The notes beneath the pieces are model-generated. The model saw only the letters and a list, made by a program, of their open reading frames with translations. It ran no database searches and had not been told where the DNA came from. From a virus (Duplodnaviria > Caudoviricetes): a stretch of 64,000 nt of DNA. The position numbers were made by a program, and so were the translations under genes. Positions 57,721 through 61,312 of the stretch are shown here, piece by piece. The stretch lies in the IMG/VR virus record IMGVR_UViG_3300010356_002264. One strand, given 5' to 3'. Every line of letters begins with the position of its first letter. Position 1 is the stretch's first letter.

Positions 57721-58058
57721 GCACGCACGTCTACTTCGGCTGCATCCTCGCGTCCAACCAGCGCAAGGTCTTCAACCTGCACGACCTCCCCCTGGGGTTC
57801 CAGGCGCTGCATCCCGGACCCCATGTGGTGGCTTCCACGCCTCAAAACGAGGCCGACGGACCTGCGTGGGTGGGGGTCGAGGCGCAGGGCCTCCCAGCAG
57901 GGCCGGTCCCGCTGGCGAGCCTGTCGGTGCGTTCCTTCCGGTACAGGGACACCGTGGAGCGGTGGCACGCGTTCTGCGAGTTCGTCAGGGCGGCGACCGG
58001 CCTGGACCTTGGGGAAGGTGAGCTCCTGCTCACCTACCTCGACACCGACGAGGACTAG
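57717..58058 (+). CDS. hypothetical protein
   Basis: GGAG SD and ATGA overlap. Confidence 0.6.
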   Translation: MSTHVYFGCILASNQRKVFNLHDLPLGFQALHPGPHVVASTPQNEADGPAWVGVEAQGLPAGPVPLASLSVRSFRYRDTVERWHAFCEFVRAATGLDLGEGELLLTYLDTDED

Positions 58059-58867
58059 CGCGACCCCTCGACGTACTTCTGCACGATCTCCCGCCACTCG
58101 TTACGGTAGCGCTCGAGGGTCGCGGCGATTATCCCGGCGACGTCGAAGCGCCGCTTCGTCTCCAGGTTGTCGCGGGACAATATGCGAGCTTGATCGCCGA
58201 GGTCGTCGAGCAGGTAGGCTGTCTTCGCGTCCACCGACTCCGCCTTGAGCTTCTCCAGGGCCGCCGTGGTCCAGACGATCTCCCGACCCCACTGTATGAG
58301 GTTCTGGGCGTACTTCTCGCCCGCCGCGATGTGCTTGAGGAAGTTCTGCGTGTATCCCGCAACGTCGTCCGAGGAGGCGATGCGCACGACGGGGACCGCT
58401 ACTCCCTCCAGGTGGGCGCGCAGCATCCAGAGGCGCTTGTCGAGCGAGCGGGACACCTCGATGTAGAGGTCGGCGGTGTCCTGGTCCCCCAGGTCAATCG
58501 ACCGGATGATGTCCTCGCGCGCGCGGTTGGACACCAGCGCCACCCGCTCGGCGAGCGCTTGCACGTGGGCGAGACCATCGAGGAGGTTCGGTGGGTAGGG
58601 CGGAAGCCCCGCCCCTGCGGCGGCCTGCTCCAGGGTGCCGCCGGCCAACGCGCCAAGCTGCACGGCGCGCTCCGCGACGTCGTCCGCGTGGTTGCGCACC
58701 TCGCCAGCCAGGTCGTCAAAGAGCCCGTGGAGCGCCTGGAACTGAGGCCCTTTGACGTTCCAGTGGGCCTGCTTGGCGGCCAGCATAAGGGCCGTGAGGT
58801 CAGCGAGGGTCTTGTTGAGGACCACACCGAGGAGGATGCGGTTCGGGGTGGGGAGGTTGATCTGCAC
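58055..58867 (-). CDS. dps: Dps (DNA-protecting ferritin-like) protein with ~105-aa C-terminal extension
   Basis: KQAHWNVKGPQFQALHGLFD, DDVAERAVQLG, DQDTADLY, LDKRLWML. Confidence 0.9.
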   Translation of the reverse strand: MQINLPTPNRILLGVVLNKTLADLTALMLAAKQAHWNVKGPQFQALHGLFDDLAGEVRNHADDVAERAVQLGALAGGTLEQAAAGAGLPPYPPNLLDGLAHVQALAERVALVSNRAREDIIRSIDLGDQDTADLYIEVSRSLDKRLWMLRAHLEGVAVPVVRIASSDDVAGYTQNFLKHIAAGEKYAQNLIQWGREIVWTTAALEKLKAESVDAKTAYLLDDLGDQARILSRDNLETKRRFDVAGIIAATLERYRNEWREIVQKYVEGSR

Positions 58868-58919: not shown

Positions 58920-60269
58920 ATGACCTGGGAGTGCCACGGCTGCGGCGAGCAGCACCCGAACATCCCCGACGCCTGTAGGGCGTGCGGAACGAAGCCCGAG
59001 ATCGTCGAGAACGTGTGGCGGTGCCGGTACTGCTCGACGGCGGGCATCCCGGCGGGCAAGCCGCGCTGCACGACCTGCGGGAAGGAGCGCGAGGCGGAGT
59101 CTGACTTCGCGGTCGACCCCTCCCGGGTCCTCGACGTTGAGGTGGGGCGCAAGCTCGCGGAGGGCACGCTCGTCAAGTGCGCCTACTGCGAGGACCTCAT
59201 CGAGCCGTTCGACGCGGCGGGCAACCCGCGGAAGTCCTGCGACACCTGCGGGGCCTCTCGTGGAGAGGCCAAGGCCGCGGCCGTGGAGCAGACGATCCCG
59301 GCGGATCAGGCAGGGACGTACCGCCCGATGCAGTACGCCGCCTCACCGCCCGCCCAGTCCCCGCACCCAGGTACTCCCGCCCAGTCGTGGCAGGAGGCCA
59401 ACGCGCTAGCCGACGAGCACGAAGATCCCCCTGGCGGGGTCTTCGCCTCGCCGGGAGCCTTCGACTACAAGCGGGCCGCGATCCTCGGTGGGGTTGGTCT
59501 TGGGGGCCTCGTCCTGCTGTTGTGGCTCGGGGGGCTCCTCGTGCAGGCGTTCCGCGCCTACCCGGTCGACGCGACGGTCACCGCCAAGCGATGGGAGCGA
59601 TCGATCGCCGTCGAGCGCCACGTCATCCTGCACGAATCCGGGTGGATCGGGCAGAAGCCTATCGAGGCGTGGGACGTGTCCTGCGCGACGAGGCAGAACG
59701 GGAACCGCCGGATCTCCGACGGGTGGGTCCCTGTCCCCACTGTGAAGTGGTTCGCCTGTGACCACCAGGAGTCCTACTCCGCCCGAGAGCCCTACATGGT
59801 CAGGGGGCAGAAGTACTGCGCCAGCTTCGCCTACAAGTCCAAGGGCAAGGTGTCGGTCAAGGAGTGCGCGGACTGGCGGACCCCTACCTCGACCGCGTAC
59901 CGCACCGTCACCAAGCAGAGGTGCGTGGGAGCCAACCGCACCGTCATCGAGTCGGTCGAGCGGTACCACTTCGAGCCCATCTGGGACCAGTACTGTAGCT
60001 GGACCGCCGATGGGGGTTGGAGGTACGCCCGCGCTCTCACAGCTTCAGGCGGCGCGCAGGACCCCCCGCGCTGGCCCGAGGTCCAGGGCCTCTCTGCGGA
60101 TGAGCGGACGTCCACGCGCACCGAGAGCTACAGCGTCGAGGTCAGCGGGGGCAAGATCGACCCGTTCCAGCGCATCCTGCTACCCGAGGTCGTGTGGCGG
60201 GAGCGGCACGTAGGCAGCACCCTGCGAGTGTGGGCTCGTCGGGGTAGCGTAATAAGCTCCAGCTACTGA
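58920..60269 (+). CDS. multi-Zn-ribbon membrane protein
   Basis: Repeated W-x-C-x2-C...C-x2-CG units, one TM, Cys-rich external domain. Confidence 0.75.
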   Translation: MTWECHGCGEQHPNIPDACRACGTKPEIVENVWRCRYCSTAGIPAGKPRCTTCGKEREAESDFAVDPSRVLDVEVGRKLAEGTLVKCAYCEDLIEPFDAAGNPRKSCDTCGASRGEAKAAAVEQTIPADQAGTYRPMQYAASPPAQSPHPGTPAQSWQEANALADEHEDPPGGVFASPGAFDYKRAAILGGVGLGGLVLLLWLGGLLVQAFRAYPVDATVTAKRWERSIAVERHVILHESGWIGQKPIEAWDVSCATRQNGNRRISDGWVPVPTVKWFACDHQESYSAREPYMVRGQKYCASFAYKSKGKVSVKECADWRTPTSTAYRTVTKQRCVGANRTVIESVERYHFEPIWDQYCSWTADGGWRYARALTASGGAQDPPRWPEVQGLSADERTSTRTESYSVEVSGGKIDPFQRILLPEVVWRERHVGSTLRVWARRGSVISSSY

Positions 60270-60279
60270 GGAGGTCACG

Positions 60280-60813
<534 letters not shown>

Positions 60814-60920
60814 ACCAAAAGAAAAACAGCGATCATCAGCTCCTGCCGCTTACCTGCCCTCTACTGCGAGTCAGTCCGGCTCGATTCGGACATAGACTCC
60901 GCAAAAAAGAACGAGACCTC

Positions 60921-60960
60921 AAAAAAACTTCTTGACCCTTAAACGGGTATGACGTAGAAA
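60921..60960 (+). promoter_or_regulatory. sigma70-type promoter of the tRNA operon
   Basis: A-tract (UP-like), TTGACC at 60932-37, 17-nt spacer, TAGAAA at 60955-60. Confidence 0.65.
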
Positions 60961-60970
60961 GAACTTCACC

Positions 60971-61132
60971 ATGTTGGCCCTGACGCAAAAAACAGACCTG
61001 ACGAACCGTGGAAGTTCCACGGCCCCGTCATATCTGCGCGCAGGGACCAATCTGGTGGCGATGCCGGGTTTTGCGGCCTCGAAGCGCCAGCCCTGCCACC
61101 TTGGTTGGATCGCTAGCACGCCTGGACCTTAG
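60971..61132 (+). CDS. putative attenuator leader peptide (53 aa, not in ORF track)
   Basis: MLALTQKTDLTNRGSSTAPSYLRAGTNLVAMPGFAASKRQPCHLGWIASTPGP; starts just after the promoter; stop codon lies in the antiterminator arm. Confidence 0.6.
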   Translation: MLALTQKTDLTNRGSSTAPSYLRAGTNLVAMPGFAASKRQPCHLGWIASTPGP

Positions 61133-61170
61133 AGTAACCTCGAAGAGAGCTTAACTCGAAGGGCCGGGCG
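61119..61170 (+). promoter_or_regulatory. antiterminator hairpin (mutually exclusive with the terminator)
   Basis: CGCCTGGACCTT (61119-30) pairs 11/12 with AAGGGCCGGGCG (61159-70); GAGT/ACTC extends the stem. Confidence 0.6.
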
Positions 61171-61199
61171 GTGAAGACCTCCCGGCCCTTCGACGTTTT
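61156..61199 (+). terminator. intrinsic terminator upstream of the tRNA cluster
   Basis: 13-bp perfect stem TCGAAGGGCCGGG/CCCGGCCCTTCGA plus 3 bp, followed by CGTTTT. Confidence 0.7.
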
Positions 61200-61242
61200 G
61201 GGGTCCTAGGACTCCGATGGAGAACGCAGAAGGACGGTGTAT

Positions 61243-61312
61243 ATGTCGCGATCAGGGATCAGGTTGGTCTCCAAAACCGACCAGCGGGGTTCAATTCCTC
61301 GGCGACATGCCA
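61243..61312 (+). tRNA. tRNA-Trp(CCA), truncated D-arm
   Basis: ATGTCGC/GCGACAT acceptor, CTCCAAA loop, TTCAATT T-loop, encoded CCA. Confidence 0.8.

Follow-up and report, generated by a model that had tools for sequence, protein, structure and literature searches.

Known Attenuators and the Head of a Phage tRNA Array

Two explanations are current for the tRNA genes of phages: that they help with codon usage, or that they make good the tRNAs which host defences destroy. To our knowledge, almost nothing is known of how the expression of these genes is controlled. The subject of this report is a short unit at the head of a phage tRNA array, at positions 60921-61199 on the plus strand of a 64,000-nucleotide (nt) stretch of Caudoviricetes DNA (IMG/VR record IMGVR_UViG_3300010356_002264). 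This whole stretch is called the window below, and coordinates refer to it unless another sequence is named. A conserved putative promoter, an open reading frame (ORF) of 53 codons and a strong terminator stand directly before the tRNA genes, an arrangement that looks like an attenuator of the trp operon type. If it acts as one, the phage has a direct reading of decoding speed and produces tRNAs as they are needed, and trp-type attenuation applies to genes of a class not known before as its targets. Should the idea prove wrong, the array is still headed by a promoter-ORF-terminator unit that is strongly conserved.

The closest described systems are the leader attenuators of the enterobacterial amino acid operons (trpL, hisL, pheL, leuL, thrL, and ilvL). 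As in the window, a short promoter-proximal ORF is followed by an intrinsic terminator before the structural genes, an upstream segment is able to pair with the 5' arm of the terminator, and the stop codon is placed such that a terminating ribosome masks the pairing segment. In the trp leader the terminator is more stable than the antiterminator and control is kinetic; the same order of predicted stabilities at the window locus would likewise imply kinetic control. The differences are also clear. The genes to be controlled in the window are tRNA genes, not those of biosynthetic enzymes, and the 53 codons of the frame, 38 of them different, contain no run of a single amino acid. The start codon of the ORF is preceded by almost no leader and by no Shine-Dalgarno sequence. 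Finally, no convincing 1:2 (anti-antiterminator) pairing is found, and therefore the default in the absence of translation would be read-through.

Two other systems, the pheST attenuator and the T-box riboswitches, are similar in that the choice between terminator and antiterminator reports the charging or availability of a tRNA and adjusts a component of translation. Neither controls tRNA genes, however. The pheM leader is a Phe-rich peptide of 14 codons controlling a synthetase, whereas T-boxes function without an ORF, by direct binding of uncharged tRNA, and the window has no T-box match. Among phages, the PR'-qut-6S RNA-tR' region of lambda and the put RNA of HK022 share with the window the layout of a constitutive promoter that produces a short terminated leader RNA ahead of a long operon, where read-through of a strong promoter-proximal terminator is needed. 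There the Q protein or an RNA element acts on RNA polymerase and no frame is translated, in contrast to the window, where the frame is under selection. A further resemblance, to the Caulobacter phage phiCbK, is discussed below.

The window belongs to an IMG/VR contig of 82.5 kb that originates from activated sludge. The same phage is found on a 331-kb ENA contig and is therefore a giant phage; its G+C content is 65-74%, and neither it nor its host is in culture. Genes of the window include tail and baseplate genes and a gene for an OmpA-domain protein. The features of the unit, all on the plus strand, are as follows:

60902-60931, plus strand: A-rich tracts resembling an UP element, 5' of the -35 box; upstream edge of the conserved unit
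60932-60960, plus strand: promoter-like site, with -35 box TTGACC (60932-60937), a 17-nt spacer and a -10-like TAGAAA (60955-60960)
60971-61132, plus strand: leader ORF, ATG to TAG (61130-61132), 53 codons, near-leaderless
60993-61036, plus strand: hairpin inside the ORF in the minimum free energy (MFE) fold; candidate pause hairpin
61119-61135, plus strand: arm A, 5' strand of the proposed antiterminator, holding the last four sense codons and the UAG
61154-61170, plus strand: arm B, the pairing partner of arm A, which shares sequence with the terminator's 5' arm
61156-61199, plus strand: predicted intrinsic terminator, with a 13-base-pair (bp) G+C-rich stem (61156-61168 with 61181-61193), a structured 12-nt loop and the tail CGTTTT
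61234-61312, plus strand: tRNA-Trp(CCA) as called by ARAGORN, the first gene past the terminator; its true 5' end is probably near 61244

The promoter, ORF, terminator and complementary arms had all been named in a preliminary description of this DNA made by reading the sequence, and every one of them is present where that description placed it.

Conservation of the Unit in Related Phages

The unit could be compared among nine distinct sequences, the window included, which come from four lineages and several independent studies. In a sliding comparison the unit is 85-90% identical in the four lineages, from the A-tract and -35 box to the T-run of the terminator, while its flanks are only 35-50% identical. 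This identity is on par with that of the tRNA genes and collapses immediately past the terminator. The edges of the identity coincide with the promoter and the terminator, which argues that the unit is a discrete selected element. The comparison in related phages that the preliminary description had called for thus shows the frame open and ending at the same UAG within arm A, with the promoter, the terminator and the alternative pairing retained.

The relatives were obtained via homologous proteins and then through the contigs encoding them. The 177-amino-acid protein encoded upstream has a 44%-identical homologue, P0001; the contigs of P0001 share the gene order and have a called 55-amino-acid gene exactly at the place of the window ORF. 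A search with the leader peptide itself yielded two more forms, P0002 and P0003. DNA contigs aligned to the locus likewise pointed to the existence of relatives. Other routes gave no relatives: megablast, blastn and tblastn against GenBank phages produced no match, and neither did a search for related loci by their flanking proteins in IMG/VR and the JGI metagenomes. The terminator pattern found 39 hairpins in IMG/VR, all unrelated, a promoter-pattern scan and a longer terminator pattern in metagenomes had no match, and an exact look-up of ten local ORFs in a protein collection recorded none. A more distant relative, L059, identified by its homologue of a 449-amino-acid protein (42% identity), lacks both tRNA array and leader at the corresponding position.

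At the upstream edge, TTGAC is invariant across the lineages, and the -10 element reads TAGAAA, TACAAG or TAAAAG depending on the lineage. The A-run adjoining the -35 box is kept in all relatives, and the sequence farther upstream is unalignable. Lacking a T at position -7, the site at 60932-60960 was not called as a promoter by a scanner built on the E. coli-type consensus. It does match the core (tANAW) of the Caulobacter-type RpoD consensus, TTGaCgS/GCtANAWC (PMC8144410), and together with the A-tracts it sits in one of only 18 AT-rich blocks of the 82.5-kb contig. The proposed sigma-70-type promoter is thus recovered as TTGACC-17-TAGAAA behind A-tracts, in the form of the Caulobacter RpoD core and not in that recognized by the E. 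coli-type scanner. Judged by its sequence, it would be active in starting transcription 3-4 nt before the ATG.

The Leader Reading Frame

The frame was described as having 53 codons, 38 distinct codons and no Glu, and this is correct. It is open in nine of nine variants (with 53, 54, or 55 codons), which all end at the same UAG. The variants differ by three indels at separate places, each of exactly 3 nt. Of the 64 gap events in non-coding alignments flanking the unit at these loci, only 7 (11%) have a length divisible by three, which puts the probability that all three indels would do so at about 0.001. Indels located 3' of the stop codon have lengths that are not divisible by three. Frame 0 has no stops in any variant, and the other forward frames contain stops. 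The ratio of nonsynonymous to synonymous differences per site (pN/pS) is 0.33-0.56 in frame 0 and 0.57-3.7 in the other forward frames, except for the closest pair of sequences (L042 vs L052, five substitutions). For neighbouring real genes pN/pS is 0.28-0.73, with synonymous differences per site (pS) of 0.25-0.57. Variable sites fall on the three codon positions in the numbers 13, 7 and 16, which is in the expected direction and not significant (p 0.17). This pattern of indels and substitutions indicates that the reading frame is under selection, that it is very probably read by ribosomes, and that the amino acid sequence of the peptide is only moderately constrained.

In other respects the ORF does not resemble the genes around it. 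Its G+C content at third codon positions (GC3) is 0.66-0.76 over the variants (0.67 in the window), compared to 0.82-0.90 in real genes. Gene callers annotate it in the relatives, as a 55-amino-acid gene, but not in the window's own phage. The relatives have AAGGA 8 nt 5' of the ATG, whereas the window has no clear Shine-Dalgarno sequence and the ATG lies about 3-4 nt from the predicted transcription start. ORFs of similar length are also present in other frames and on the opposite strand of the window. The preliminary description had asked for a variable peptide in relatives; the N-terminal half of the peptide does vary, but the C-terminal 33 residues are largely invariant.

The peptide belongs to no Pfam or PHROG family, and a profile search of 1.8 billion representatives returned matches from this clade only and no more distant homologues. 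AF2 predicts no secondary structure and no fold (pLDDT 55). An identity as type I toxin was rejected, the peptide not being hydrophobic. In all variants the peptide ends in Pro-x-Pro-stop (PGP or PEP, then UAG; 61121-61132), and an invariant Trp is found seven residues before the last Pro. A C-terminal proline is known to slow termination, and the Pro-x-Pro-stop may do so here, keeping the ribosome on arm A. The same bases belong to arm A, which makes the peptide and RNA constraints inseparable at this point.

Terminator and Proposed Antiterminator

The claimed terminator, a 13-bp G+C stem followed by CGTTTT at 61156-61199, is there. With -34 kcal/mol, it surpasses every other terminator-like hairpin of the 82.5-kb contig; its T-run is only 4 long. 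In the relatives the stem has 11 bp and the tail, TTCGTTT(T/C), is richer in T; conservation holds for the stem but not for the loop. The 23-nt spacer between the stop codon and the terminator is nearly invariant, while the terminator loop and the sequence after the T-run vary freely. This invariance, as a feature of the alignment, is an RNA-level constraint that goes beyond the coding sequence.

The arm A:arm B helix has a predicted free energy of -22 kcal/mol (-23.8 kcal/mol as a duplex). For nascent transcripts with 3' ends at 61168-61183 it belongs to the MFE structure, and in transcripts ending at 61186 onward the terminator displaces it. When the pairing was folded with parts of the RNA masked, as had been proposed, a ribosome footprint of 61115-61146, corresponding to a ribosome at the UAG, abolished the antiterminator, whereas footprints farther upstream left it intact. 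The UAG lies inside arm A in nine of nine variants, and the duplex is retained in all, at -19 to -26 kcal/mol. Arm A varies only at 61123 (T>C, turning a U.G pair into C-G) and at 61125 (G>A in four variants, breaking the pair). Arm B is invariant except for 61169, which is C>A in two variants; this base belongs to the loop of the terminator, yet to the stem of the antiterminator. Of the preliminary claim of a mutually exclusive antiterminator, the complementary arms stand as a prediction that all variants keep, whereas no covariation is seen in the four shallow lineages and the pairing score exceeds chance only marginally. By these models the antiterminator is plausible, if weakly supported.

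The whole transcript (about 60965-61205) is more stable than its shuffled versions (z = -5.7). Variable columns are about twice as common at positions that are unpaired in single-sequence folds (p 0.02-0.13). The hairpin previously noticed at 60999-61030 exists as part of a larger one, 60993-61036. An Rfam scan of 60930-61235 found no family, only chance matches to the hairpin (E 0.4-3), and with no Rfam match, identities as tmRNA, 6S, T-box, GOLLD or ROOL were rejected. A boxA-like element in GAGCTTAAC was also rejected, the likeness being too weak. On the minus strand, 60987-61036 reads as the 60993-61036 hairpin (-26 kcal/mol) followed by T6, and is the second-best terminator-like site of the contig. 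A functional minus-strand terminator was rejected on two grounds: the A-run that encodes the T6 is AGAAAA in the relatives, and no converging minus-strand gene is among the ORFs listed to the right. The likeness is probably incidental.

A Proposed Translation-Coupled Attenuator

We consider the unit to be a candidate translation-coupled transcription attenuator, read by ribosomes and gating the phage tRNA array, and put the probability of this at roughly 0.45, a little short of even odds. In such a mechanism, a host-type promoter would fire and produce an almost leaderless RNA, whose first 53 codons would be translated during transcription. Once RNA polymerase has made arm B (61154-61170), this would pair with arm A (61119-61135), and the resulting antiterminator would delay or prevent formation of the terminator hairpin, allowing the polymerase to continue into tRNA-Trp and the rest of the array. 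A ribosome keeping pace with the polymerase would instead reach the UAG at 61130-61132 and cover arm A; the terminator would then fold and a leader RNA of about 230 nt would be released. The net effect would be that fast translation yields little extra tRNA, and that translation slowed or blocked at almost any of the first ~44 codons yields more. That the promoter is active and where it starts transcription, that the ORF is translated, how the switch behaves in time, in which direction it regulates and any physiological trigger are all inferred. What sustains the attenuator interpretation of the preliminary description is the conservation of frame, stop position, promoter, terminator and pairing; what it lacks is covariation and a strong codon argument, and it has to accommodate variants with uncompensated changes.

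Several findings weigh against an attenuator. At equilibrium, the full-length RNA always favours the terminator (P 0.999), and therefore the antiterminator could act only kinetically. Equally good pairing with arm B also occurs in 5.1% of dinucleotide shuffles and in 3.3% of genome windows, a marginal result (p 0.03-0.05). In two variants the changes 61125 G>A and 61169 C>A drop the antiterminator to -19 kcal/mol without compensation. RNAalifold gives 75 consensus pairs, of which one is compensatory and none of those in the switch arms, with a covariation term of +0.49, an unfavourable value, as seen with four shallow lineages that offer little power. The covarying stems that had been expected in relatives are thus not found; the sole compensatory pair (U-A to C-G, alignment columns 47 and 57) is in the 60993-61036 hairpin. 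The window ORF has no Shine-Dalgarno sequence, and its start codon is inside a predicted long-range helix. With 53 codons it is long for a leader peptide, and it has no run of one amino acid or of regulatory codons; amino acids served by the first tRNA block make up 42% of it compared to a background of 32%, an excess that is not significant (p 0.09-0.19). Lastly, the near-invariance of the 33 C-terminal residues and a pN/pS inside the range of neighbouring genes mean that the peptide could have a function of its own.

A more specific proposal is that the leader, with codons for nearly all tRNAs encoded by the phage, is a general sensor of decoding speed, such that slowing at almost any codon derepresses a near-complete set of phage tRNAs. 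We regard this as doubtful, and well below the attenuator itself in probability. The cause of slowing could be tRNA cleavage by a host anticodon nuclease, the exhaustion of tRNAs late in infection, or a general arrest of translation. If the proposal is true, the leader closes a feedback loop in which tRNA supply follows demand, and it also serves as a counter-defence switch. The link to anticodon nucleases and PARIS drawn in the preliminary description is pure inference, and nothing supports sensing of defence or of tRNA cleavage.

The tRNA Array and Its Codons

The window contains 12 tRNAs identified by ARAGORN and two Ser-like ones identified by Rfam. On the contig at least 35 tRNA genes are found on the plus strand from 61234 onward, interspersed with ORFs; the first tRNA block is the same in every relative. 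Between the T-run and tRNA-Trp lie 35-45 nt that are G+C-rich and not conserved. An E. coli-type promoter scan and an AT-block scan of 60968-64623 found no AT-rich island and no sigma-70-like site. With no other promoter-like island before the first 14 tRNAs, host RNA polymerase would have to pass the terminator; read-through of the terminator therefore seems needed for these tRNAs, if it is host RNA polymerase that transcribes them. A phage-encoded polymerase using other promoters may be an alternative route.

The leader ORF was said to contain a codon for each of the downstream tRNAs. A cognate codon is indeed present for 14 of the 14 window tRNAs, which has a probability of 0.014-0.032 under null models, the statistic being post hoc; the leader ORFs of the relatives cover 13-14 of the 14. 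For the contig, the window ORF covers 30 of 33 anticodons, compared to 25 +/- 2.3 expected (P 0.005-0.019, also post hoc). The broad coverage is due in part to low codon bias, and A/T-ending codons of the leader are often G/C-ending in the relatives. The codon argument is weak at this locus.

Some features of the array deserve mention in their own right. The tRNA-Trp called by ARAGORN is 79 nt long with its anticodon at position 38, compared to 69 nt for the homologue in relatives; in the window it has a weak Rfam score, and its D-arm is atypical. Past the end of the window, a 240-nt AT-rich block (G000:C1:74918-75158) lies between tRNA-Pro(GGG) and tRNA-Pro(CGG). No AT-rich island of the contig is larger, and this one may be an internal promoter region or the scar of a mobile element. 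In L045:1976-2491 and L048:2186-2701, an extra ORF of 171 amino acids is located between the pair of tRNA-Lys genes; neither the window nor L042 has it. Its presence and absence among close relatives indicate that the array gains and loses ORFs.

Comparison with Phage phiCbK

The architecture of the unit recurs in the unrelated phage phiCbK, which we examined on GenBank record JX100813 (48022-51630). Predicted terminators annotated by the depositors lie directly 5' of three tRNA blocks, each behind a mini-ORF (20, 45, and 32 codons). The 32-codon ORF is leaderless, with the arrangement TTGACA-17-TAGGGT-7-ATG, and precedes tRNA-Phe, Val, Ile, Ile, Val, Gln and Gln; 9 of 12 consecutive codons in it specify Gln, Phe, Val or Ile. 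This ORF also includes CCGGGCGGGCC, a near copy of the terminator 3' arm CCAGGCGGGCC. The ORF of 45 residues, gp083, precedes tRNA-Pro, Pro, Lys, Lys, Leu (three genes) and Ser (two genes), and 23 of its 45 residues are Ser, Leu, Pro or Lys. The 20-codon ORF before tRNA-Glu and tRNA-Asp has two Glu codons and one Asp codon.

The two phages are alike in the arrangement of promoter elements and start codon (TTGACC-17-TAGAAA-10-ATG in the window), in the succession of a short ORF, a G+C-rich terminator and tRNAs starting within tens of nucleotides, and in having an ORF with a near copy of the terminator 3' arm. They differ in that the phiCbK leaders are only 20-45 codons long and plainly fit the tRNAs that follow (Gln/Phe/Val/Ile, for instance), whereas the window has a longer, generalist leader before one long array for most amino acids. 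There is no sequence homology between them. By analogy, the architecture of phiCbK raises the prior for an attenuator at the window locus, without proving one there.

The phiCbK genome paper reports no RNA elements besides tRNAs (PMC3556154). In full-text searches of the literature we found no description of attenuation of tRNA genes, or of the phiCbK cassettes as attenuators. Since phiCbK is a cultured phage with a genetically tractable host, the attenuator idea is directly testable there.

Alternative Explanations

The alternative that survives best, although we consider it unlikely, is an independent small gene for a protein of 53-55 amino acids, or a dual-function RNA, with its own promoter and terminator. 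The tRNAs would then come from constitutive leakage or from transcription elsewhere, and the complementarity of the arms would be incidental, as their pairing p of only 0.03-0.05 would permit. A selected frame whose pN/pS of 0.33-0.56 is within the range of neighbouring genes, the largely invariant 33 C-terminal residues, and in relatives the gene calls and the AAGGA 8 nt before the ATG all point in this direction. Action in trans has a precedent: two reports on rnTrpL/peTrpL of Sinorhizobium describe terminated attenuator RNAs and leader peptides that can act in this way (PMC6614838, PMC7968998). Such a gene would, however, have a codon usage unlike that of phage genes (GC3 0.66-0.76 vs 0.82-0.90), and its product would have no Pfam or PHROG family, no match outside this clade among the 1.8 billion representatives, and no AF2 fold at a pLDDT of 55. 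It would also leave two things unexplained: the 23-nt untranslated spacer, which is as conserved as the ORF, and the placing of the contig's strongest terminator 35-45 nt before conserved tRNA genes that have no promoter.

Less probable still is a leader for factor-dependent antitermination, of the type of lambda PR'-qut-tR' with Q, nut with N, or the put RNA of HK022. A phage protein or the leader RNA itself would modify RNA polymerase, and translation would be irrelevant or secondary: a short terminated RNA would be made constitutively, and at the proper stage of infection the modified polymerase would read on into the tRNA genes. Control of the lambda late genes has a layout of strong promoter, terminated leader of roughly 200 nt, strong terminator and operon, and the layout of the window unit equals it. 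The need for read-through to the first tRNAs, the conservation of the whole transcript at the nucleotide level, its untranslated 3' part included, and the unusual stability of the RNA (z = -5.7 vs shuffles) would fit such a leader as well. Antitermination of this kind does not account for the three 3-nt indels and the fixed position of the stop codon; nor is there an Rfam family match, and no antiterminator gene was identified in 82.5 kb of the ~331-kb genome.

A purely non-coding structured leader or small RNA, its ORF a by-product of high G+C content and nucleotide conservation, is very improbable. In its favour, a 53-codon open frame has by rough estimate a ~20% chance per frame at this base composition, ORFs occur in other frames and on the opposite strand, coding-type GC3 is missing, the codon-position bias of 13, 7 and 16 is not significant (p 0.17) and the ORF is uncalled in the window's own phage; against it, all three indels are exactly 3 nt (vs 11% multiples of three in the flanks), frame 0 alone is stop-free in all variants, and the deletion in L051 removes three predicted base pairs while keeping the frame.

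Neighbouring Genes

The 449-amino-acid, CxxC-rich protein encoded at 58920-60269 is mosaic among the relatives: the N-terminal half of its gene has 80-95% nucleotide identity (pS 0.25-0.32) and the C-terminal half 60-75% (pS 0.47-0.57). The next gene, 60280-60813, encodes a protein that is only 44% identical to that of the relatives. Just upstream of the 449-amino-acid gene, on the minus strand, a ferritin/Dps-like gene (58055-58867; PF00210 in precomputed calls for L060 and relatives) is kept in all relatives.

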